From: an uncultured Candidatus Binatia bacterium
Lineage (GTDB): Bacteria; Desulfobacterota; Binatia; UBA9968; JAJDTQ01
Length of the DNA stretch: 64,000 nucleotides
Direction of reading: 5' to 3'
Assembly: GCA_965213675.1 (NCBI GenBank)
Contig: OZ243916.1
Coordinates: 96,001-160,000, forward strand
The notes beneath the pieces are model-generated. The model was not told where the DNA came from, searched no databases, and worked only from the letters and a program-made list of their open reading frames with translations. Position numbers and translations under genes: made by a program. Below, one piece after another: positions 43,099 through 55,356 of the stretch. How positions within the stretch are numbered: position 1 is the first letter of the stretch; every line of letters starts with the position of its first letter.

Positions 43099-43303
43099 GT
43101 CGATCTCCGCTTGTTCGTTTGGCGGATACAGCAGGGTCGGACGGGACACGGACGACGCCTAACGCCAACGTGACCCCACGTTCGTTTCGCTGCCGACGAT
43201 AGGACACGCAACGCGCTTGTGCAACCCCGACGTCCAGTCCTCAAGGGTCGCAAAACGCGGTTCCGGGCGCACGGAAAGCAGCGGCGGGGGCGGCTCCGTT
43301 GCC

Positions 43304-44578
43304 CTACTCCGGGGGTGGAACAGGCGCTTGCGCGTCGGAGCGCAGCAACTCCAGGAACTTCCGCCGTGGAAACCCGTCGGCGCGCTGTCCCTTGCTCGCC
43401 TGATAGTGTCGAACGGCCGCGCGCGTCTTCGGACCAATGATGCCGTCGATCTCGCCGATGGCGTATCCCCGCGCCGCCAGCAGGCGCTGCAGTTCGACGC
43501 GCTCGGCTTCGGCGATGGGGGCGATGCCGTCAGGCCATACGAGGACGTTTTCCTGGCCACGCAACCGTTCGGAGAGATGCCCCACCGCGAGGGCGTACTT
43601 GTGAGCCGGGTTGTAGCGCATGATCGCGCGGAAATTCGCGCGCAACAGGAAGGCAGGTCCCTCGATGCCCGCGGGAAGGTCGAGGAACGCCGGCTCCGTG
43701 GGACGAGTGAACGCGTTGCCGTCGGTCCGCCGAACCCCCAGTTGCTCCCAGTCCCGGATGCTCCGCTCCCCCTTGCGGCCGGCGAGTCCGGCGTCGAACC
43801 CCTTCGGGAGGACGACCCTGTCGCCCCAAGGCCTTTGCGGCGCCCACCCGTTGCGGCGCAGATAGTTGGCGGCGGATGCGAGCGCGTCCCGCGGCTCGTC
43901 CCAGATGTCGCGCCGGCCGTCACCGGTGAAGTCCACCGCGTAGGCCAGGTAGCTCGTGGGAATGAACTGCACGTGGCCCATGGCGCCTGCCCACGAGCCG
44001 TTCATGCGCTCCAGCGCGATGTCGCCGGCCTTGAGAATATTCAGGGCCGCCAGCAATTGGTTGCGTCCGAACTTCGCCCGGCGTCCCTGGTAGGCCAGGG
44101 TCGAGAGGGATCGGATGACGTTACGCTTGCCCTGCAACTTGCCGTACAGCGTCTCCATGCCCCAGATGGCGGCCAGCACGTGGCGATCCACCCCGTAGCG
44201 CTCCTCAATGCGTCTCAGGTCGGCGGCGTGTTCCGAAAGCTTGACGCGCCCGTCGCGCACGCGCGTATCGGTGACTACCAGGGCTACGTACTGGGAGGCG
44301 GGCAATATGAACTCCGGTTGCCGGTTGTTCCTTTCGATGACTTCCGGGTCAGGGGTGAGGCCGCGAAACGCGCGGTCATAGAGTGCTTCCGGAATGCCGC
44401 GCCCCAACGCCGCCGAGCGGAATTCGCGCACGAAGGACGCATAGGCGGCGTGGTCGGAGGTGAGCGGCTGGCCTGGGGAAGTGGACGGCGCCACGAAAGC
44501 GGCGATGATCGCGGAAGCGAAGATCGCCAGCACCGGAGCCCGGCGGCGAAAGTTCTTTACGGTGGTGCGTCCTTTCAT
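43304..44578 (-). CDS. Lytic murein transglycosylase (MltB/SLT_2) with C-terminal peptidoglycan-binding domain
   Basis: QPEF, AIWGMET, GSWAGAMGHVQFIP, DFTGDGRRD, DGIIGPKTR. Confidence 0.93.
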   Translation of the reverse strand: MKGRTTVKNFRRRAPVLAIFASAIIAAFVAPSTSPGQPLTSDHAAYASFVREFRSAALGRGIPEALYDRAFRGLTPDPEVIERNNRQPEFILPASQYVALVVTDTRVRDGRVKLSEHAADLRRIEERYGVDRHVLAAIWGMETLYGKLQGKRNVIRSLSTLAYQGRRAKFGRNQLLAALNILKAGDIALERMNGSWAGAMGHVQFIPTSYLAYAVDFTGDGRRDIWDEPRDALASAANYLRRNGWAPQRPWGDRVVLPKGFDAGLAGRKGERSIRDWEQLGVRRTDGNAFTRPTEPAFLDLPAGIEGPAFLLRANFRAIMRYNPAHKYALAVGHLSERLRGQENVLVWPDGIAPIAEAERVELQRLLAARGYAIGEIDGIIGPKTRAAVRHYQASKGQRADGFPRRKFLELLRSDAQAPVPPPE

Positions 44579-44602
44579 GAAGTATACGGGTCCTTCCGCA
44601 GC

Positions 44603-44833
44603 CTACGTGAACAGTTTTACGATGATGGCGATGAGTCCCGCAAGTATGGTCAGGGCCCCCAAAGCCATTTTGCTCTCGAGCTTGGAAATGTCCGCCTTTG
44701 TGGCCAGGTGCGGAAGAGTCGATTCAAAGGCCGTCTCCAGCCGGGTGATGTCCGTCTTGGTGGCCAAGTGCGGAAGAGTCGATTCGAAGCCTGCCTCCAG
44801 CCGCGTGATGCGTTCTTCCGTTCCGTTCGCCAT
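44603..44833 (-). CDS. 76-aa coiled-coil protein with C-terminal TM (DUF1640/CCDC90-like) and a 20-aa tandem duplication
   Basis: GGAGG SD; ITRLExxFESTLPHLATK twice, LATKADI motif, hydrophobic tail. Confidence 0.75.
   Translation of the reverse strand: MANGTEERITRLEAGFESTLPHLATKTDITRLETAFESTLPHLATKADISKLESKMALGALTILAGLIAIIVKLFT
44688..44810. repeat. 60-bp tandem duplication inside small coiled-coil gene
   Basis: TGGCCARGTGCGGAAGAGTCGATTCRAAG...CTCCAGCCGSGTGATG at 44701 and 44761. Confidence 0.85.
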
Positions 44834-45037
44834 GATTGCCAACCTCCCGTTATCCAACCCTGCCGCCATCTTGACCGCGGCCGCCATGAAAATCAACGGT
44901 TTTGAACATGGGTCCACCCCAAGAGCCTTCGCGGTAGTTTGCCCAACGAATCCCTGCTGACTATATTTGGAAGCGCGTTGCTTCCCAGCTCCGCGCACAC
45001 ATGCCTTCAGCGACATCACACGAGAGGAGAATGCACC

Positions 45038-45910: not shown

Positions 45911-46723
45911 TCATGGTGGCGGGTCGTTGGGAAGACGGCTCATGACGGCGCCGAGTTCCAGAGTCCTGCCGTACACGCTGCGCGCACAGTCGCTGAGGAG
46001 GAAGGCCGCCACCGCGGCGACCTCCCCGGCCGACGGGACGTCACTTTCCCGGCACGGGCGCCTGTCCCCGATTGCCGTCCCCGCGGGCGGCGGTTCCGGC
46101 TCACCCGGCGCCGGATCGGACTCGGGCCGCACCCGGCCGGCGCGTATGGGGCGCCGCCAGAAGGGCGGCGGCTTCAGGACGTTCAGGGTGACATTATCCT
46201 GAGCGGCTTCCGTGGCGACGCCATGCAACCATGCCGTGAGCGCGGCGTCGGTGGCGGCACGGACGCTGCCCCCAGCGCCGTTGCGATCCTCCGGCCATGG
46301 AACCATCCAGAGGACGCGCCCCCAGCACCGGCTCCGCATTCCGCGAAGAAGAGTCTCCGTGAGCGCCCTGAAGCGCAGGAATCCGTCGTCGAGCCGGGCG
46401 CTCCAGTCGGGGTTGCCCTGTCCATCGTCCCGCAAGGCGTGCCGGACGATGCCGAACAGGATATCGATGGCGCCGAAGTCGCGTGCGATCCGCTCCACCT
46501 GGCCGCCGGCCGACGCTTCGCTCCACGCCTCCAGGGGGTAGCCGGCGGTCCGGACGCCACCCCGCTCCGCGGCTTCGGCGGCCACCCGTCGCGCCGCCCA
46601 TTCCTTGCGCGCGCACACGGCCACGTTGGCGCCCTCGGCGGCCAGCGCTCCGGCCACGGCCCGGCCGATGCCGCGAGATCCGCCGAAGACCAGTGCGCTG
46701 CGGCCCTTGATGCCCAGGTCCAT
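45911..46723 (-). CDS. Atypical short-chain dehydrogenase/reductase
   Basis: MDLGIKGRSALVFGGSRGIG Rossmann start, C-terminal AAFLLSD; catalytic region divergent. Confidence 0.75.
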   Translation of the reverse strand: MDLGIKGRSALVFGGSRGIGRAVAGALAAEGANVAVCARKEWAARRVAAEAAERGGVRTAGYPLEAWSEASAGGQVERIARDFGAIDILFGIVRHALRDDGQGNPDWSARLDDGFLRFRALTETLLRGMRSRCWGRVLWMVPWPEDRNGAGGSVRAATDAALTAWLHGVATEAAQDNVTLNVLKPPPFWRRPIRAGRVRPESDPAPGEPEPPPAGTAIGDRRPCRESDVPSAGEVAAVAAFLLSDCARSVYGRTLELGAVMSRLPNDPPP

Positions 46724-46735
46724 GCGTCTCTCCGT

Positions 46736-48655
46736 TCATCCTGAATGCGCGAGCGCCGCCGGGGGCGGACCGCTCAGGGCCTCTACCAACTCTGTTTCCC
46801 GGGACATCATGTCGGCGAAGTAGCCGTTTCCGCGGACGAGTTCCGCGGGAGATCCCTGCTCGGTGATCTTTCCCTGGTCGAGACAGATGACCCGGTCCAC
46901 GTGGCGCAGCGCGGACAACCGGTGGGCGATGATGATGACCGTCCGCCCTTGTGCCAAGCCCTGCAGGTTCCGCTGGATGCGCAGCTCGTCCTCCTTGTCC
47001 AGGGCGCTCGTGGCTTCATCCAGAATGAGCAACGCACGCGCATGAAACAACCCGCGCGCCAGCGCCAGCCGCTGCCGTTCACCGCCCGAGAGAAGGCTGC
47101 CGCGGGCGCCGATGGTGGTGGCGTAGCCCTTGGGCATGCGGGTGATGAACTCGTGGGCGCACGCCGCCTTGGCGGCCGCGGTCACCTGCGGCATCTGGCG
47201 CTCGCCCGGTCCCAGCGCGATGTTGTCGGCGATGCTGCGCCGGAAGATCGGATAGTCCTGCTCCACTGCGCCGATGTGAGCGCGCAGCCACGCGGGATCG
47301 ATGATCGTCGCGTCGACGTTGTCGAGGAGCACGCGCCCCTCGTTGGCCAGGTAGAGTCTCTGAATCAACCGGCTGAGGGTGCTCTTGCCTGAGCCCGACG
47401 GCCCTGCGATGCCCACGGTTTCGCCGGGCGCGACATCGAAGGTCACGCCGTCGAGTGCCATCCGGTCGGTGTCCGGATAGCGGAAGCGGACGTCCTCGAA
47501 ACGAATGCCCCCCGTGAAAGCGGGCGGCCGGATGAGGTGCCCGCCGTGGCGCTCCGTCTCCTCGTTGAGCACGGTGGCCAGTTCCTTCACCAGCCCGCGT
47601 GACCGGCCGAAGTCGTACGCGAACAGGCACAGGCGCATCATGGGCTGGGAAAAGCGCATGTTGACCAGGTTGACCGCCACGAGCTGGCCCAGGGTGAGTT
47701 GGCCGTCCAGGACCATGGAGGCGCCGAACCAGAGCAGCCCGGCCGTGGCGAGACGGTTCACGAACTGGTTGTACTGGGTCGTGGATTCGCGCAGGTCTTG
47801 CGTGTCCTCCTCCGATGCCACCGCGGCGTCCACACGGTCGACGAGGAAGTCTTCCTGGGCCCTCACCTCGTTCATGCCCTTGACGGTCTCGATGCCGGTG
47901 AAGGTGTCGAGCACCGCCTCGTTGCTTTCCCGCCGGTTCCCGCGGGTGCGCCGGGTCCATCGCCGCAATGTCGGCATCACCACAAAGGCCGGAGCGATGT
48001 AGAGGGGAAGGGAGGCCAGGATGATCATCGACAACGTCAGGCTGAAATTCAGCATCAGCGCCAGGAAGACGACCACGAAGACGACGTCGACGAACACGAA
48101 CACCACGGCGTTGGTGAGGAAGCGCCGCAGTTGCTGAAGCTCCTCGATGCGGGAGAGGGTCTCCACCGGGGTGTTGCGGAGGTAGAAGGACGCGGGCAGC
48201 TCCAGCGAGTGACGAATGAGCCGCGACAGCAGCGTGCGGTCCATGTGGCGCACGGCCCGGCGCAGCGCGCGGTGGCGCGCCGCGCGCAGGATGGCTTCGA
48301 ACAACAGGAAGAAGAGCAGGCTGACGATAATGACGTCGAGGGTGGCGGCGCCCCGGTTGGACAGGACCTTGTCGATGATGATCAGGAAGGCGAAAGGGTA
48401 GATGTAACCCAGGAGGTTGACGAAGAAGGACGCCGCCACCAACGGTCCGAAGACAGCCTTGTTGTGGAATATGTGCTTCGCGACGGAGGCGAGCGAGAAC
48501 TCCGCGTCTTCCCCTTCGACGGGACTCGCCGGCCTCTCCGCGGGATCGCCGGTGGGCTCCACGCGCGGTCGGGCCCGGCCCGGCGCACCCGCGCCCCGGG
48601 GGCGGGCGCCGGCCGGCCCACGGCCCTCAAGCCTGTGCTGCGTCGCGGGCGTCAT
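46736..48655 (-). CDS. HlyB/PCAT-type ABC exporter lacking the C39 peptidase domain
   Basis: IIIDKVL, LTLGQLVA TMD; GPSGSGKST, LSGGERQ, ILDEATS, AHRLS. Confidence 0.9.
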   Translation of the reverse strand: MTPATQHRLEGRGPAGARPRGAGAPGRARPRVEPTGDPAERPASPVEGEDAEFSLASVAKHIFHNKAVFGPLVAASFFVNLLGYIYPFAFLIIIDKVLSNRGAATLDVIIVSLLFFLLFEAILRAARHRALRRAVRHMDRTLLSRLIRHSLELPASFYLRNTPVETLSRIEELQQLRRFLTNAVVFVFVDVVFVVVFLALMLNFSLTLSMIILASLPLYIAPAFVVMPTLRRWTRRTRGNRRESNEAVLDTFTGIETVKGMNEVRAQEDFLVDRVDAAVASEEDTQDLRESTTQYNQFVNRLATAGLLWFGASMVLDGQLTLGQLVAVNLVNMRFSQPMMRLCLFAYDFGRSRGLVKELATVLNEETERHGGHLIRPPAFTGGIRFEDVRFRYPDTDRMALDGVTFDVAPGETVGIAGPSGSGKSTLSRLIQRLYLANEGRVLLDNVDATIIDPAWLRAHIGAVEQDYPIFRRSIADNIALGPGERQMPQVTAAAKAACAHEFITRMPKGYATTIGARGSLLSGGERQRLALARGLFHARALLILDEATSALDKEDELRIQRNLQGLAQGRTVIIIAHRLSALRHVDRVICLDQGKITEQGSPAELVRGNGYFADMMSRETELVEALSGPPPAALAHSG

Positions 48656-49487
48656 CGGTGCTCACCAGTGCGAGGCCTTGCGCCGCAAGCTCCTTGATCA
48701 GGTGCCTGCGGGGGTCGTCGGCTTCCGCGCGGGCACTCTCCGCCAACGGTGTCGGATTGCCCGCAGGACCATTTGCCGGGCTTGTCGCGGCAGCAGTCCT
48801 GTCGCCCACGGCCCCGGCGGCGAGGGAACGCCATTCTCGGGAGCCTTCCAGCAGGGTGAAGGCCTCCGGCGCCAACTCCAGAACCCTGGGACGTCGCCGT
48901 CCACGGGTCGCGAGTATCACCATGTGCACCCTTCGTTCCGTCACCGGCTCACGGGAGCGGGTGGGCTCGAACAGGGCGCGCACGTCGTGCCGGCATTGCA
49001 CGAGGCCCGCGCACGGATGTGTCCGGTACCAGAAGCCCGGCTCTTGGGGCCGCGCCGCCAATACATCGCTCTCCATGCCTGCGGGGCGCAGCGTCCGTGC
49101 CCATGCCAGCGCCAGCTCGATGGCCGCGACGTCCGCGGTCCAGGGCGGCCGCGGCGGTTGGTCGACGTCCGGTGCGAGGAACCGTTGGAAGAAACGTTCA
49201 GCGTCCGGGTAGCGCTCATAGGTCCGCGGCGGGCACGCCGTGGCGTAGTCGCGGGCGAGGGCCGGGAACCCGTGTCCCAGCAGCGTGGCGGTGCGCTCGA
49301 ACGTCTGGCGGAGGCGCGCCATGCGCTTGTTGTACGAGAATTCGGCTTCCAGGCGCAGCCGCCCCACATCCATGCCATGAAGCTCGGGGTCCCGGACCGC
49401 GGAGTCGAGGTCGGGAGTCCCGAAGATGAGGGCCGGGCTGGTCAGGTGCCGCAGCAGATGGGTCTGTCTGTCAATGAGCCGGTGCAT
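48627..49487 (-). CDS. DUF2063-like MNIO partner protein (putative RiPP recognition)
   Basis: LRQTFERTATLLG..F..LARDYATACPP and PWTADVAAIELALA patterns; overlaps the DUF692 gene. Confidence 0.75.
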   Translation of the reverse strand: MHRLIDRQTHLLRHLTSPALIFGTPDLDSAVRDPELHGMDVGRLRLEAEFSYNKRMARLRQTFERTATLLGHGFPALARDYATACPPRTYERYPDAERFFQRFLAPDVDQPPRPPWTADVAAIELALAWARTLRPAGMESDVLAARPQEPGFWYRTHPCAGLVQCRHDVRALFEPTRSREPVTERRVHMVILATRGRRRPRVLELAPEAFTLLEGSREWRSLAAGAVGDRTAAATSPANGPAGNPTPLAESARAEADDPRRHLIKELAAQGLALVSTDDARDAAQA

Positions 49488-50358
49488 GAATCATACTCCC
49501 TTCGCTTGTGGAGGCGGCTCTGGCCACCTGCCGGCGGAGCCGCGTCACGTCCGCCAGAAGCTCATCTCCCTGTTCGTAGTCGTTGTCCCGCTCCAGGATC
49601 ACCGTTCGGGGGCGCTGGCGGTCGAGGGCGTACTCCAGGAGATCCAGTGCTTGTTGGGGCACGGGGTGGCTGTGGTTGTCGGCGTGGAAGGGTACGTCGA
49701 GGTAGGGCCGCTGGATGAGAGGACCCCCGGCCGCATGCACCCCGGTCACCACGCCCTCGGGCAGTTGGTCGAGAAACGCCAGCGGATCGACGCCATGGTT
49801 CGAGGCGTTGACGAACAGGTTCTCCACGTCCAGCAGCATGCCCACGCCGGTCTCGCGGAACAGCAGGTTGAAGAACTCCGCGTCGTTCATCTCCGCGTTC
49901 GGAAAGTCGAAGACGTACGAGATGTTCTCGATGGCGAAGGGCACCGGCAAGTGCGCCTGGACCCGCTCGATCTTGCGGATGAGCATGTCCGCGGCGGCGC
50001 GGGTCTTGGGCACCGGCAGCAGGTTGGCGAGGTCGATGCCGGGAACCTTGGTCCAGGCGAGGTGTTCGCTGTAGGACGGAATCTTCAGGTCCTCGATGGT
50101 TTCCGCCACCGCGTCGAGATAGGCCTCGTCCAGGGGAGCGTCGGTGCCGATGGAAAGCCCCACGCCGTGCAGGACAAGGGGCACCCGGTCCACCAGGTTT
50201 TGGATGGCCCGGCGCGCGTAGTCGCCGCCCTTGATGTAGTGGTCCACCGTGACCTCCAGCACGTCGAAGCGGTGCAGGTTCGCCAGCGTCCACTTGGCGA
50301 CGGGAACACGGAAGCCGATGCCGATAAGGGGGGACTCGGATGGAATTGAACTGTTCAT
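49471..50358 (-). CDS. DUF692 multinuclear non-heme iron-dependent oxidative enzyme (MbnB/TglH/ChrH family)
   Basis: GGAGG SD; GIGFR, LHGVGLSIG, YSEHLAW, IENIS, LLDVENL, HAAGG, DNHS, VILERD. Confidence 0.93.
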   Translation of the reverse strand: MNSSIPSESPLIGIGFRVPVAKWTLANLHRFDVLEVTVDHYIKGGDYARRAIQNLVDRVPLVLHGVGLSIGTDAPLDEAYLDAVAETIEDLKIPSYSEHLAWTKVPGIDLANLLPVPKTRAAADMLIRKIERVQAHLPVPFAIENISYVFDFPNAEMNDAEFFNLLFRETGVGMLLDVENLFVNASNHGVDPLAFLDQLPEGVVTGVHAAGGPLIQRPYLDVPFHADNHSHPVPQQALDLLEYALDRQRPRTVILERDNDYEQGDELLADVTRLRRQVARAASTSEGSMIHAPAH

Positions 50359-50656
50359 GGAACCTCCCGACTCGAAATGAAATCATGAGCCCGGCGCTTG
50401 CCGCGTCCGGCACGCACCGGTCTTTGCGAGCGCTGCGCCGCCTTTCACGGCCGCGCTACGTCCTCACAAGTATCAATCGAAAGGTGGTCGCTGAACTTTA
50501 GCCCCGGCCGCTGAAAAACTCCGCGAGCGGCCGGGTCGGTGTGGAACGGAGCGCTATGCGAAAGCTGTGGTATCCGCTTGCGCTCCGACAGGGGAGGTCT
50601 GAAATGGTCAGGGAATTGGCAGGGCCGCCTGTGTGGGGCAACCCTACCGGGCTAAC

Positions 50657-50818
50657 TAGTGTGGTGTCTGGTTAATACGCGTCATAATCTGCGGGTCTTT
50701 TTCGCCGTCGGCTGCGTTGCTCTTCCTCGCGTGGTACACGCCACTGCTCGTCATCGCGCCTTGCCGACGACAAAAAATCCTCCGCAGATTATGACGCGAA
50801 TTAACCAGACACCACACT
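50657..50818 (+). repeat. Palindromic repeat family A, copy 2
   Basis: 37-bp terminal IR AGTGTGGTGTCTGGTTAATACGCGTCATAATCTGCGG (1 mismatch); CTAG/CTGG at ends; core shared with the 40778 copy. Confidence 0.88.
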
Positions 50819-51826
50819 GGCGAGTTCCATGCCCACAATCCGTGCCGGATTGCGGGTGCAGACCGTATACAACTCGTCCTGGTGCAACCCGAATGCCTCC
50901 ATGTAGCCGCGGATAAGGCGCATGGCTTCCACGGAGTCGGGAAACAGCGGCTCGCCGGCATCGCTCGACAGCGCGAAGTGCTCGACCCCCACCTCGCGGA
51001 TGGTGTTGTACATGATCTGGGGATCGACGCCGAGAAGCGGCGACAACTCATCGAAGGTGAAGTTGAACAGGACGCCCAGGGGCGCCAGCTCCTTCATCTG
51101 CTCCACCGATACGTCGAGAAAGGGGCTGTAGGGATGGTCGATGACCAGCCGTGCGAGCCCCGCCTTGTGCGCCTCCTCGGCGATCTTGAAGATCTCCTTG
51201 TGGGTGGGGTGGCCGAAGAACAGCGCCACGTCCCGCTCCACGCACAGCCGGATGACATCCCTGACCTCGGGCTTCAACGTCCCCGATGCGTCGAGGTTGT
51301 AGCGGCCGTGCTCCAGGGCCTTTTCCCAGGAAAGGGGACCCATCCAGCCCTGAGCGTTCATGTCGTGCTCGATGAGTTCCCGGCGGCTGCCCACGATGTG
51401 CATGGTGTTCGCGTGGTTGAAGACCGGCAGCCACAAGGCGACGACGCCGTCGTCGATGGCTCGTTCCGCCAGCTCCGCCGACACCGGTTCGTCGTTGCGG
51501 CCGCACACGAAGCCGGCGAACAGGGCCACTGGCGCGACCCCTTCCTCCGCGGCCCACGCGTCGAGTTGCGCTTGCAGTTCGCGAACCGCCGTCCCTGCCT
51601 TGCCCACGATGGACTTGAACAGGATGCCCTTCATCCCGGCCCGGGAAGCCTTCTTCACCAGGTCCAGGGCATCCTGCTGGCCGGCGTGGGCGTGGCAGTG
51701 GATGTCGATGGCGTCCTGGACCTTGACGTGGCCGGGATGGACCACGCCGGGCTTGTACTGGGTGCGCGCCGCGTAGGAGGTGACGCACCGCTCCTGGGTC
51801 GGGGTAGAGACCACGTTGTCACTCAT
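50801..51826 (-). CDS. DUF6282-like amidohydrolase/PHP-type metalloprotein
   Basis: AIDIHCH, WLP, FGH, IDHP, LSSDAG, RNPA; AGGGAG upstream. Confidence 0.75.
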   Translation of the reverse strand: MSDNVVSTPTQERCVTSYAARTQYKPGVVHPGHVKVQDAIDIHCHAHAGQQDALDLVKKASRAGMKGILFKSIVGKAGTAVRELQAQLDAWAAEEGVAPVALFAGFVCGRNDEPVSAELAERAIDDGVVALWLPVFNHANTMHIVGSRRELIEHDMNAQGWMGPLSWEKALEHGRYNLDASGTLKPEVRDVIRLCVERDVALFFGHPTHKEIFKIAEEAHKAGLARLVIDHPYSPFLDVSVEQMKELAPLGVLFNFTFDELSPLLGVDPQIMYNTIREVGVEHFALSSDAGEPLFPDSVEAMRLIRGYMEAFGLHQDELYTVCTRNPARIVGMELASVVSG

Positions 51827-51932
51827 CGCCTTCTCCCTTCACTGGCCAGGCACGGCCGCCGGAACCGGCTTGCCGTGCGCCATGAGACCGGTTCATATTA
51901 GACCCTCGAAAACCGGAACGGAAGAGGCGGAC

Positions 51933-52946
51933 ATGGATGGAACCGAGTATCTCACGCCCCTCGAGGCGTCGGTGGCGCTGGGCCTTGCCCTGGGCGCCGT
52001 CTACGGCGCGCTGGCCCAGCGCAGCCGATTCTGCCTGCGCCGCAGCCTGGTGGGGCAATGGAGGGAATGCCGGCCGGCGCTCGGCGTCTGGGCCATGGCG
52101 TTTGCCCTGGCCATCGCCGGCACGCAAGGCGCGGTGTCCGCGGGGTGGATCTCCTTCGATGCGCACCGGTTCCTGGCCCCCGACCTGCCCGTCGTCGCGG
52201 TTGTCGTGGGCGGCGCCCTGTTCGGCGCCGGCATGGTGCTCAGCGGCGGCTGCGCCTCCCGGCTCGCGGTGCTGAGCGGTTCCGGCAACCTGCGCGCAGC
52301 CCTTGTTCTGGTGGTCTTCGCGGTGGTCGCGTACGCGATGATGAAGGGTGTGCTGGCGCCGCTGCGCTCGGCGCTCGCCGGGTGGACGCTGGATCCCGGC
52401 GGCAGAGTGACACTGGCGGCTCTGCCCGGCGGGGACGTCTGGATCTGGGGCCTGGCGCTCGCTGCGGGGACCCTGGCGTTCCGCTCCGGAGCGGACCCGC
52501 GCCATGTCGCCATGGGCGCCGCCATCGGGCTGCTGGTGCCGCTGGGGTGGGTCGGCACCGGTTTTGTTCTCCTGGACGACTTCGATCCCGTGCCGCTTCA
52601 GTCCTTGAGTTTCACCGGACCCATGGCCGACACGCTGTTCTGGAGCATGGCGGCCACCGCGGTTCCGGCGGGCTTCGGCACCGGCCTGGCCGCCGGCGTA
52701 TTGGGTGGCAGCCTTGTGGCGGCGGTCCGCGCGGGCGAGTTCCGTTGGATCAGCCTGGAAGGGCCGCGGCAGACCGGACGTTACATGGCCGGCGCGGCGT
52801 TGATGGGGACGGGCGGCGTGCTGGCGGGTGGATGCACGGTGGGGGCCGGACTGTCGGGCGTGTCCACCGGCAGCATCGCCGCGACCCTGGCGCTCATGGC
52901 CATGGCGCTGTCAGCCAGGACGGTGGGGAAGCTGATCCGAGGATAG
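51933..52946 (+). CDS. YeeE/YedE family sulfur/thiosulfate transporter (SoxT-like)
   Basis: RSRFCLRR, FGAGMVLSGGCASR, GGVLAGGCTVGAG. Confidence 0.9.
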   Translation: MDGTEYLTPLEASVALGLALGAVYGALAQRSRFCLRRSLVGQWRECRPALGVWAMAFALAIAGTQGAVSAGWISFDAHRFLAPDLPVVAVVVGGALFGAGMVLSGGCASRLAVLSGSGNLRAALVLVVFAVVAYAMMKGVLAPLRSALAGWTLDPGGRVTLAALPGGDVWIWGLALAAGTLAFRSGADPRHVAMGAAIGLLVPLGWVGTGFVLLDDFDPVPLQSLSFTGPMADTLFWSMAATAVPAGFGTGLAAGVLGGSLVAAVRAGEFRWISLEGPRQTGRYMAGAALMGTGGVLAGGCTVGAGLSGVSTGSIAATLALMAMALSARTVGKLIRG

Positions 52947-52985
52947 CCGCCCCTCAAACGCTTTCCGTTCATGGCCTCTGGAGGA

Positions 52986-54275
52986 TCAGCCGAAGAGGTC
53001 CCTGGAGAAGGCCGCGTACCAACCGACGGATTCCTCGTAGGTGGCCTTGCGTACCTCGGCGCTCTCTCCGGTCTTGGAGATGAAGCCGTCGGTCTTGGCG
53101 ATCTTCTCGTCGGTGGCCTTGTAGGAGGCGCCGACCTTGACGCCGTCATCGGTGGCGATCAGCGACCAGCAGGTGTTGCGGAAGCGCGCCGGGAATGCCT
53201 TCGAGCCGGTCAGCGCCGCGCGCACCGCCATGGCGCACACCTTGGCCTGACTGTTGGCGGAGAACCCGGACTTGGGCATGTCCCCTTGCTGGGAAGCGTC
53301 GCCGAGCACGTGAATGTTCTCGTCCGCACGGCTTTGCATGGTGTGGGGCGCCACCGGCGCCCAGCCCGCTTCGTTGGTGATCCCGGCCGCCGCCGCGATG
53401 CGGCCCGCCTGCTGCGCCGGAATCACGTTGCAGACATCCACCTTGGTGACCTCGCCGTCGATCACCACCTCCATGGAACCCGGGCGCACCGCCACCTTGT
53501 CGCCGCCGAAGTCCGGACCGACCCGCTCGATCATGCCGGGGTAGTGGCGCTGCCAGCCTTCCTCGAATAGCCCCTGCTTGGAAAACTTCGCCTTGGGGTC
53601 GACGATCAGTATCTTGGCCGTCGGGTTGGATTGCTTCAGCGTGTGCGCGACCATCGAGATGCGTTCGTACGGTCCCGGGGGGCAGCGAAAGGGGTTCGGC
53701 GGCGCCACCATGCAATAGACGCCGCCCTGTCGCATGGCCGCCACCTGGGCCTTGAGGAGCTGGGTCTGCGAGCCCGCCTTGTAGGCGTGGGGCATGCGGT
53801 TCTGATGCGACAGGTCCCAACCAGGCACCGAACCTGGGCGGAAGTCGATGCCGGGGGAGAGGATCAACCGGTCGTAGGCGAGGCTGCCGCCGCCGGCGAG
53901 TCCGATCCGCTTCTTTCCCCTATCCACGGACACGGCCCAGTCGTGGACCACGTTGATACCGTAGGCCGACGCCAGGGTTCCGTAGGAATGCCCGATGGAC
54001 GCGAAGCTGCGGAACCCGCCGAGGTAGAGGTTCGAGAAGAAGCATGAGTAATAGTGCCGGGAGGGCTCCACCAGGGTCACGTCGATGGCGCCTTTCGAGT
54101 CCTTGGCGAGGTAGCGCGCGGCCGTGGCTCCGCCGGCGCCGCCGCCGATCACCACCACCCGCGGGCGGCTCTGGCCGAGGATGGGTGAGGCCCACAACGC
54201 CGCCGACGTGGCGGCGGTGGATGCCAAAAAGCGGCGCCGGCTCAGGCCGCGGTTCTTGTGATCCCTTTTCGACAT
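52986..54275 (-). CDS. soxF: Flavocytochrome c sulfide dehydrogenase flavoprotein subunit
   Basis: Tat signal SRRRFL, GGGAGGATAA, SCFFSNLY, RCPPGPYER, MPKSGFSANSQ, NTCWS. Confidence 0.92.
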   Translation of the reverse strand: MSKRDHKNRGLSRRRFLASTAATSAALWASPILGQSRPRVVVIGGGAGGATAARYLAKDSKGAIDVTLVEPSRHYYSCFFSNLYLGGFRSFASIGHSYGTLASAYGINVVHDWAVSVDRGKKRIGLAGGGSLAYDRLILSPGIDFRPGSVPGWDLSHQNRMPHAYKAGSQTQLLKAQVAAMRQGGVYCMVAPPNPFRCPPGPYERISMVAHTLKQSNPTAKILIVDPKAKFSKQGLFEEGWQRHYPGMIERVGPDFGGDKVAVRPGSMEVVIDGEVTKVDVCNVIPAQQAGRIAAAAGITNEAGWAPVAPHTMQSRADENIHVLGDASQQGDMPKSGFSANSQAKVCAMAVRAALTGSKAFPARFRNTCWSLIATDDGVKVGASYKATDEKIAKTDGFISKTGESAEVRKATYEESVGWYAAFSRDLFG

Positions 54276-54290
54276 GGCTCCCCCCTTTTC

Positions 54291-55004
54291 TCATGGCCCG
54301 TCGGCCGGCCTTGCGAAATACGCGGCCAGCGACGCGATCTCCTCGTTGGATAAACGCCTGGCGATGGTCTGCATGGCCTGATGCTTCCGCTTGCCATGCT
54401 TGTACGCTTGCAGCGTTATCACGAAGTCCTCCACCGGCCAACCGGCAATGGCGGGGATGCCTTGCTCGGCGCCGCCGGCGTGGTGGCAGGTGACGCATTC
54501 ACTCGCCAGCCAAGCGCCGTATTCGAGGTCGCCCGGAATGGTGAGGAGGCGCGGGTCGAGGCCGTATTCGGCGGCGGTCATGGTCGGTTCCGCCGCCGGA
54601 AGGCGGGAGCCGGACAGGGAGCGCAGCCACGCCACAAGATCCGCCCGGTCGTCCGCCGCCATGCCGGCGTAGCTCATGCGTGACCGCGGCACCGCCTTGC
54701 GAGGGTCTGCCAGAAAGGTATCCAGCGTCGCTTCCGTCCACACCAGTCCGGCGGTTCCGGCCCTGCGCATGGCCCGAGAGTAACGAAAGTCCGGGAGCGA
54801 ACCGGCGCGGCGACCGAACAGGTCGTTCAGGTGGGGGCCGATGCGGTGCCTTGCGCCACGGCCGGTCTGGTGACAACGCTTGCATTCCTGGTAGAGCGCC
54901 TTCCCGCGTTGCGTATCCGCGCCATGGGCTCCGGTGGCGGCCAGAAGCAGAAGAAGAACCAACGCGAGCACAGGGAAAGCCGCGGGCTTCGTGATGCTCT
55001 TCAT
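54291..55004 (-). CDS. soxE: Diheme cytochrome c (SoxE-like)
   Basis: Signal peptide; CKRCH with GPHL (class I) and CVTCH; upstream of soxF. Confidence 0.82.
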   Translation of the reverse strand: MKSITKPAAFPVLALVLLLLLAATGAHGADTQRGKALYQECKRCHQTGRGARHRIGPHLNDLFGRRAGSLPDFRYSRAMRRAGTAGLVWTEATLDTFLADPRKAVPRSRMSYAGMAADDRADLVAWLRSLSGSRLPAAEPTMTAAEYGLDPRLLTIPGDLEYGAWLASECVTCHHAGGAEQGIPAIAGWPVEDFVITLQAYKHGKRKHQAMQTIARRLSNEEIASLAAYFARPADGP

Positions 55005-55026
55005 GCGCAGTGGGGCGCCCGGAAGG

Positions 55027-55356
55027 TCAAGACTTGACCGTGACTCGCCGGCCGAGGCGGTATACAGAGCCATCGTCATCGACCCACTCGAATTCCATCT
55101 CGCCCGATTCCCGCACCGCCATTTCGAAACTGAAATACGGATCCGCGGACACCGCCCGTTCGAGATCCACGGAGATGGCCTCCTCGCCGTTGTAGCGCAC
55201 CACGAACTGGTTGATGATCCGCCGGGGAATGCGTTTCCCGTCACGGTCCTGGCGGAGCCCGGTGTGCATGGGGTGGGTGATGCGGGTCCTGACGGTGAAG
55301 GGAACTCCGGCGGACACCGACTTCGGCAGTTTCACGCGCGGCCTGGGATTCTGCAT
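55027..55356 (-). CDS. soxZ: Sulfur carrier protein SoxZ
   Basis: PRVKLP, ITHPMHTGLRQDRDG, PRRIIN, AVSADPYF, WVDDDG. Confidence 0.92.
   Translation of the reverse strand: MQNPRPRVKLPKSVSAGVPFTVRTRITHPMHTGLRQDRDGKRIPRRIINQFVVRYNGEEAISVDLERAVSADPYFSFEMAVRESGEMEFEWVDDDGSVYRLGRRVTVKS

Follow-up and report, generated by a model that had tools for sequence, protein, structure and literature searches.

A compact MNIO operon in the window

The 64,000-nt stretch of an uncultured Candidatus Binatia genome analysed here (contig OZ243916.1; hereafter the window) carries four co-oriented genes on the minus strand, encoding an oxidative enzyme that depends on multinuclear non-haem iron (MNIO, DUF692), its partner protein, an ATP-binding cassette (ABC) exporter and a protein with a short-chain dehydrogenase/reductase (SDR) fold. 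The genes for the MNIO enzyme (295 aa, P0001; 49471-50358) and its partner (286 aa, P0002; 48627-49487) overlap by 17 nt, the latter overlaps by 29 nt the gene for the exporter (639 aa, P0003; 46736-48655), and a gap of 12 nt precedes the SDR gene (270 aa, P0004; 45911-46723). An earlier note made from the sequence had listed these four genes with the same span, overlaps and gap, all of which the open reading frames (ORFs) and their translations reproduce exactly. The four genes likely form the core operon of a lineage-specific system that modifies and secretes a peptide made on the ribosome and modified after translation (RiPP) or a protein, and the likely substrates belong to a new family of Cys-Gly-repeat proteins encoded far outside the window.

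Membership of the first gene in the MNIO superfamily is supported by its Pfam score, by conserved residues of metal-binding type and by the overlapping partner gene downstream. The match to PF05114 (MbnB_TglH_ChrH) reaches 253 bits against a cut-off of 25 and covers profile positions 2-260 of 263. No variation is seen among 16 orthologues at H64, H99, E144, D177, N180, H208, D227, H229 and E256, and 3BWW, a solved DUF692 protein, has the identical residue at each of these nine positions; they are probably the iron ligands, as in the MbnB and TglH structures. The DUF692 enzyme with His/Glu/Asp motifs proposed from the sequence is thereby borne out. The best match in the Protein Data Bank (PDB) is 3BWW (E 1.3e-36), followed by TglH (2e-16) and MbnB (~1e-5). 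Among the NCBIfam models, BufB (NF050167, 206.7 bits against an equivalog cut-off of 310) and HvfB (NF003818, 187.3 against 360) rank first, with ApyH (99 against 400), ChrH (55 against 600) and MbnB (TIGR04159, 40.4 against 325) further down. The enzyme thus passes none of these five equivalog cut-offs for characterised MNIOs, in support of the earlier suggestion of a distinct class, and it is the sole MNIO of the window's genome.

The partner was first described as DUF2063-like. Its Pfam DUF2063 score of 19.1 bits lies under the cut-off of 27.2, and among the proteins of relatives P0062 scores 17.6 bits while P0012 and P0089 have no Pfam match. No sequence match to the partner was found in the PDB. 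An AlphaFold2 model with a mean pLDDT of 80 has TglI (8hi7_A; E 2.5e-5, TM 0.51) as its best structural match and NGO1945 (3dee; E 4.4e-4) as its second, both of them established partners of MNIO enzymes, and as modelled the partner fits the 'PME-type 2' partners as they are described in the available text of PMC12452194.

The third gene encodes a transporter with ABC_membrane (119 bits) and ABC_tran (101 bits) Pfam domains. Its best NCBIfam model is the type I secretion protein HlyB (TIGR01846), which ranks first as expected from the HlyB-type exporter of the earlier note, with a score under the cut-off (532.6 against 725.55 bits). Since the match spans profile positions 120-693 only, the N-terminal domain is missing, and alignment with relatives reveals a clean in-frame deletion of about 120 residues. 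The full-length ABC protein of a relative scores 558 bits against the same TIGR01846 cut-off and 21.1 bits for Peptidase_C39 against a cut-off of 22. For the C39-like domain of the relatives no sequence match was found in the PDB, and the expected catalytic Cys and His are presumably replaced, as they read as Ser and Arg when the motif is placed on the alignment.

The remaining parts of a type I secretion system are encoded elsewhere in the same genome. Its HlyD adaptor, outside the window, passes the TIGR01843 cut-off (330.3 against 208.65 bits), as does the HlyD encoded within the locus of a relative (336.2 bits). Two TolC-like genes of the OEP family (PF02321) lie at G000:C1:3139514-3140671 and 808670-809899, where G000 denotes the genome holding the window and C1 one of its contigs, and their link to the ABC/HlyD pump is putative. 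The genome therefore has an HlyD above its cut-off and a TolC-like channel, and its ABC protein stays below the HlyB cut-off and is devoid of the C39-like domain.

The product of the fourth gene matches adh_short (64.6 bits) and keeps the glycine-rich dinucleotide motif in 14 orthologues. In the same alignment no Ser, Tyr or Lys is kept at the catalytic positions (Y-x-x-x-K), so that it is not a classical SDR and has no canonical catalytic triad; the label 'atypical SDR' given to it earlier was well chosen.

No precursor gene was recognised beside these four genes. The upstream intergenic region, presumably the promoter region (50359-50800, minus strand), has no precursor-like ORF in its 440 nt, a search of 700 nt on the upstream side of MNIO in 22 loci yielded no conserved small ORF at the syntenic position, and no ORF with a C-x-C-x-C-x-C motif is found anywhere in the window. 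These results agree with the earlier remark that the locus has no adjacent precursor.

Conservation and selection of the operon

Orthologues of the MNIO enzyme with 78-92% identity are present in 26 of 28 genomes of the genus, which consists of uncultured bacteria, and elsewhere in the same taxonomic order an MNIO occurs in one of 16 genomes, with 30% identity. All 26 related loci keep the order MNIO-partner-ABC, and 23 of them also have the SDR gene. The earlier note would have given up its reading had the linkage of exporter and SDR been confined to this genome; the linkage recurs in other genomes. A C39-like N-terminal domain is found on the ABC protein in 12 of the 26 loci, genes for an HlyD adaptor and a TauD-family dioxygenase are inserted between the ABC and SDR genes in 12, and the exact reduced layout of the window, devoid of C39-like domain, HlyD and TauD, is seen in eight.

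The ratio of nonsynonymous to synonymous substitution rates (dN/dS), computed against three close relatives sharing the reduced layout, is 0.13-0.17 for the MNIO gene, 0.23-0.27 for the partner, 0.22 for the ABC gene and 0.30-0.39 for the SDR gene, with values of 0.04-0.07 for flanking genes. The low ratios of the four genes indicate that purifying selection maintains the reduced operon. As the gene order is kept in 26 of 26 loci, the SDR gene in 23 of 26, and all ratios are below 0.4, the arrangement exceeds what chance would produce.

A family of probable precursors with Cys-Gly repeats

Candidate substrates emerge from extra copies of the locus in relatives, where the ORF directly upstream of the MNIO gene combines a leader-like N-terminus with a run of Cys-Gly repeats. 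The fetched loci (designated by L-numbers) yield 33 distinct members of this family, of 61-282 aa (median 164) and with 7-20 Cys (median 14). The leader of about 32 residues is acidic, with the pattern W-x-L…L-D-L-E-V/I-H-G and a median of 8 Asp/Glu to 2 Lys/Arg over the 33 leaders, and the core consists of (Cys-Gly)n followed by (Cys-Ser)n, often trailed by an acidic linker and then by a C-terminal domain of one of several kinds. All 14 precursors that were aligned share one Trp, L-x-L-E and G-C-G-C-G-C. By reading, the leaders have no basic N-region, and unlike precursors of the bufferin or captophorin type these proteins appear to be devoid of an N-terminal Sec signal peptide; a crude hydropathy window gave no clean split from two exported controls.

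The family is confined to the genus in the genomes compared. It matches no Pfam or NCBIfam family, the 164-aa precursor has no usable match in the ESM Atlas, and a search of 5.8 billion proteins returned 22 relatives, all unnamed or 'hypothetical'. A profile of the precursor is positive in 27 of the 28 genus genomes and in none of 400 other genomes of the phylum, from 254 other genera (E <= 1e-5). Within the genus it co-occurs with the biosynthetic genes, since MNIO is found in 26 of 28 genomes, the precursor in 27 and a TauD-like protein in 27; genome G014 is without all three, and G019, which is 76% complete, is without MNIO only.

Linkage in the relatives connects the precursors to the MNIO operon or to HlyD. 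A precursor lies beside the MNIO operon in four loci. In three of them, L038/L049, L039/L061 and L089, it is the gene directly upstream of MNIO; in the fourth, L031/L071, an S9 peptidase gene stands between precursor and MNIO. Away from the MNIO gene, precursor, HlyD and TauD genes follow one another on one strand in all ten loci checked, each from a different genome, with one locus ending ahead of TauD. An S9 peptidase or Sel1-repeat gene lies no more than 1.5 kb from the precursor gene in 22 of 32 loci, an MNIO gene in three and none of these in seven, with some overlap between loci. The neighbourhood of the relatives' loci, which the earlier note had proposed to inspect, thus holds both a recurrent precursor and HlyD, and the precursors have no RTX repeats. 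The two alternatives offered there for the substrate, that it is encoded elsewhere or that it is a protein secreted by a type I system, both gain support: Cys-Gly-repeat precursors lie far off in this genome, and in relatives they are linked to the MNIO operon or to HlyD. We regard the Cys-Gly-repeat proteins as the likely substrates of the MNIO system and as a new protein family.

The surroundings of extra copies of the system look mobile. On the chromosome of one relative (L031/L071), a distance of about 8 kb separates a tandem pair of MNIO loci, and a precursor, an S9 peptidase and transposase-like genes stand between them; the ABC gene of one locus is truncated.

Outside the genus, the nearest relatives of the MNIO enzyme in a search of 1.84 billion representatives share 52-56% identity; they include fused MNIO-partner proteins of 530-535 aa (P0119-P0122), and one is named as from a Steroidobacteraceae metagenome-assembled genome. 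One metagenome scan, with the nearest relative outside the genus, a fused MNIO-partner protein, as query, gave two short contigs only. Contig L108 carries a fused gene (2006-3398, plus strand), whose product shares 80% identity with P0120, a representative that in turn has 53% identity to the window's MNIO, and an ORF 1 kb upstream (699-1016, plus strand) that ends in a short Cys-Gly repeat of four Cys alternating with Gly. This is a hint, rather than evidence, that Cys-Gly cores go with a wider MNIO subclade. On the other short contig no secretion genes are seen downstream.

Dispersal of the system in the genome

In the window's genome the system is split over three places: the window, an HlyD-TauD locus and a precursor locus. 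A six-frame scan of the genome found three precursor ORFs, all far from the window (~3.76 Mb by contig coordinates). One is intact and encodes a 164-aa protein with 17 Cys (G000:C1:3906075-3906569, minus strand), one is a 43-aa short form and one has a stop codon inside the core. The precursors lie together with genes for an S9 peptidase (PF00326, 167 bits) and a Sel1-repeat protein (254 bits) at G000:C1:3906075-3911082; by reading, the N-termini of both proteins appear hydrophobic and signal-like. The genes for HlyD and the TauD-like protein lie at G000:C1:213603-215948, outside the window and 68 kb from the MNIO gene. The TauD-family dioxygenase scores 99 bits for PF02668 (116 bits for the copy of a relative), and H-x-D, distal His and Arg motifs are readable in its sequence.

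Several features of these regions were noted in passing. Upstream of the relocated HlyD-TauD pair, at G000:C1 ~216.3-216.6 kb, lies a transposase-like remnant that resembles an IS5-type insertion sequence (IS) by reading of its translation. The segment G000:C17:70001-75173, on another contig, repeats the precursor region at G000:C1 ~3908.7-3913.9 kb with 99.3% identity over 5.2 kb, and this duplicate probably represents a second strain in the assembly, for which a contamination of 8% is stated.

Proposed pathway and alternative explanations

In the scheme that we infer for the modified residues, the chemistry, the order of steps and the export of the product, the partner would bind the acidic leader of about 32 residues on precursors that are encoded elsewhere and apparently carry no signal peptide, and the MNIO enzyme would oxidise the core cysteines of (Cys-Gly)n(Cys-Ser)n one after another, with 5-thiooxazole as the likeliest product. 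The HlyB-like ABC protein, the HlyD adaptor and a TolC-like channel would export the product, the TauD-family dioxygenase and the SDR-fold protein may tailor it or assist, and an exported S9 peptidase and Sel1-repeat protein would act after export, outside the cytoplasm. The preference for 5-thiooxazole comes from BufB and HvfB, which stand nearest to the enzyme among the NCBIfam models. FonB, an MNIO of the captophorin class, is described as forming 5-thiooxazole on Cys followed by Gly, and 5-thiooxazoles are described for the Haemophilus influenzae product oxazolin too (in the available text of PMC12668002). The product is probably a secreted Cys-modified RiPP or protein, and probably a poly-thiooxazole; a copper-type metal-binding role is suggested by analogy only.

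Several observations weigh against the pathway as a whole, which we nevertheless consider likely. The window's genome has no precursor near the operon, two of its three precursor copies are cut short, and the slot ahead of HlyD, usually occupied by a precursor, holds the IS-like remnant instead. The window's ABC protein is without the domain that binds cargo in HlyB-type pumps, the SDR-fold protein is without catalytic residues, and the partner is, by its sequence, not a bona fide DUF2063 (PME-type 1) protein. The chemistry may differ from that of characterised enzymes because the MNIO falls below the BufB and HvfB cut-offs. Finally, the co-occurrence counts are not independent, because all the genomes are close kin.

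A more specific proposal can be offered tentatively, at somewhat less than even chances: that these genes define a new RiPP or protein class in which an MNIO makes long 5-thiooxazole runs from tandem Cys-Gly and Cys-Ser repeats, so that linear polyazoles would arise without YcaO, in an iron- and oxygen-dependent manner, and the product, hydroxylated by a TauD-family enzyme, secreted by a type I system and trimmed outside the cell, would serve as an extracellular chelator of high capacity for copper or other soft metals or as a microcin-like antibiotic, all from genes scattered on the chromosome.

Among the competing explanations, the one that survives best accepts the same biosynthesis and assigns it another purpose, namely a microcin-like linear polyazole antimicrobial that would leave the cell through a bacteriocin-type pump, and not a metal chelator; immunity or maturation would then fall to the Sel1 protein or the peptidase. 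An N-terminal leader ending in Gly, an ABC protein with a C39-like domain and an HlyD-family adaptor, as present in the relatives, is the export layout of class II microcins and bacteriocins, and copy number is variable, with some loci beside transposases and phage-like genes. The near-universal and syntenic presence of the system in the genus would be unusual for a bacteriocin, and no immunity gene is evident. Moreover, the nearest characterised MNIOs by NCBIfam score, BufB and HvfB, belong to a 5-thiooxazole-making group for which evidence of a role in copper detoxification is described in the available texts of PMC12668002 and PMC12452194. An antimicrobial purpose is thus a lesser possibility, one chance among several rather than the expected outcome.

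A further alternative, which we hold to be quite unlikely, is that the Cys-Gly-repeat proteins are not substrates of the MNIO, which would have another target, and are instead unmodified metallothionein-like secreted proteins or substrates of a YcaO-type enzyme. Their cores do look like the Gly/Cys/Ser-rich precursors of YcaO-made azole peptides, the window's genome has one YcaO gene (G000:C1:64849-67209), and no precursor stands next to the MNIO gene in the window. The YcaO azole route is nonetheless unlikely because YcaO occurs in only 16 of the 28 genus genomes, against 27 for the precursors, and is never seen next to a precursor gene; 11 genomes have precursors and no YcaO. The precursor genes that abut the MNIO operon in four loci, and a leader-plus-core design suited to recognition by a partner with a domain of the RiPP recognition element (RRE) type, likewise argue for the MNIO.

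The idea that the window's locus is a decaying remnant, non-functional after losing the C39-like domain, HlyD and TauD, draws on the fuller form in relatives, the two truncated precursor copies and the IS-like remnant upstream of HlyD, and is very unlikely because of the selection data (four intact genes with dN/dS of 0.13-0.39 against three relatives of reduced layout), with the commonness of that layout (8 of 26 loci), the intact HlyD and TauD 68 kb away and one intact full-length precursor also standing against it.

A lineage-specific MNIO pathway acting on the Cys-Gly-repeat proteins therefore remains the preferred reading. Work on MNIO enzymes is lively in natural-product enzymology, and here one is paired, in an uncultured lineage, with a near-pure Cys-Gly/Cys-Ser core, an acidic leader, dedicated type I secretion proteins and an enzyme of the TauD family. 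The 164-aa, 17-Cys protein is a concrete substrate candidate with a simple core for iterative MNIO catalysis. As enzyme, adaptor and precursors occupy three separate places, mining of the gene neighbourhood alone misses such substrates. Should the product be a poly-thiooxazole, the system would secrete a metal-binding polymer of a novel type.

Neighbouring features

Between the MNIO gene and the next gene upstream, which encodes a DUF6282 protein (50801-51826, minus strand), lies a palindromic element of about 165 nt (50656-50815) resembling a miniature inverted-repeat transposable element (MITE). It has a folding energy of -101.8 kcal/mol (z -14) and 207 blastn matches across the genome, the top ones 96-99% identical, and another copy has inserted into a truncated precursor gene, within its leader, at G000:C1 ~3909.3 kb. 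The DUF6282 gene flanks 19 of the 26 related loci. It belongs to a stretch (50801-55244) in which sulfur-oxidation genes adjoin the operon, with a YeeE/YedE-type sulfur transporter (51780-52946, plus strand), a flavocytochrome c sulfide dehydrogenase flavoprotein (52986-54275, minus strand) and a di-haem cytochrome c (54291-55244, minus strand). Of 20 loci retrieved with less flanking sequence, 10 have the sulfide dehydrogenase gene nearby, nine of them with YeeE as well. On the other side of the operon, a 562-aa ORF (43217-44905, plus strand) has no Pfam match; it adjoins a polysaccharide deacetylase gene in relatives too, with 46-66% identity over its main segment.

A separate RiPP-like cluster at G000:C1:61091-68336, outside the window and about 30 kb before its start, encodes a 786-aa YcaO-domain protein. 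The N-terminus of the ORF before the YcaO gene resembles, by reading, a leader of the nitrile-hydratase type.

Comparison with known systems

The captophorins (bufferins, oxazolin and fontiphorin, made by BufB, HvfB or FonB with a DUF2063 partner) share with the present system the order of MNIO and partner genes and Cys-rich repeat cores in which a small residue comes after Cys; the window's MNIO also has its best NCBIfam models in BufB and HvfB and its best solved relative in 3BWW. They differ in that the window's MNIO lies below both equivalog cut-offs and its partner is not a bona fide DUF2063 protein, in that the precursors here begin with an acidic leader where captophorin precursors carry a Sec signal peptide, in the accessory genes, which comprise those for type I secretion together with TauD, SDR-fold, S9 and Sel1 genes, and in precursors mostly unlinked to the enzyme. 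Unlike in captophorin loci, no DoxX, DUF2282, sigma or anti-sigma family was present among the Pfam matches of the 10 neighbouring ORFs scanned.

The pearlin system TglHI of Pseudomonas syringae resembles the present one in the predicted fold of the partner, for which TglI is the best match, and in a precursor that has a leader but no signal peptide. The target of TglH is one Cys at the C-terminus, whereas the precursors here have 7-20 Cys in repeats, and the window's MNIO is distant from TglH (E 2e-16). The two systems also share a partner of the 'PME-type 2' kind, as that kind is described in the available text of PMC12452194. In the methanobactin system MbnBC, as proposed here, an MNIO and a partner convert Cys residues of a leader-bearing peptide that is then exported; the similarity of the window's MNIO to MbnB is very weak, there is no MbnC-type partner, and the export genes are others. 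Type I secretion and bacteriocin exporters are approached by the HlyD that passes TIGR01843, by an ABC protein nearest to HlyB and by two TolC-like genes elsewhere, and differ in that the ABC protein here scores under the HlyB cut-off and, in the window's copy, has no N-terminal domain. The cargo here, moreover, would have an N-terminal leader and no RTX repeats.

Among the papers found, none had a title or abstract opening describing an MNIO locus that comes with type I secretion, with TauD or with precursors of the Cys-Gly-repeat type, and, where this was looked for, none combined MNIO-type terms with 'type I secretion'. A possible counterpart is 'adjamnio-I', a group of putative precursors in the survey of Antoine et al. 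(2025, Microb Genom, PMC12452194, Table 2) that comprises 100 sequences of 122-293 aa with 8-21 Cys, no Pfam signature and no signal peptide, in the order precursor-MNIO-PME type 2. That survey gathered only ORFs preceding MNIO genes, and its available text makes no mention of an ABC transporter, HlyD, type I secretion or TauD. As far as a comparison with its published description goes, adjamnio-I may be the same family as the Cys-Gly precursors, with which it is compatible in size, number of Cys, gene order and the absence of a signal peptide.

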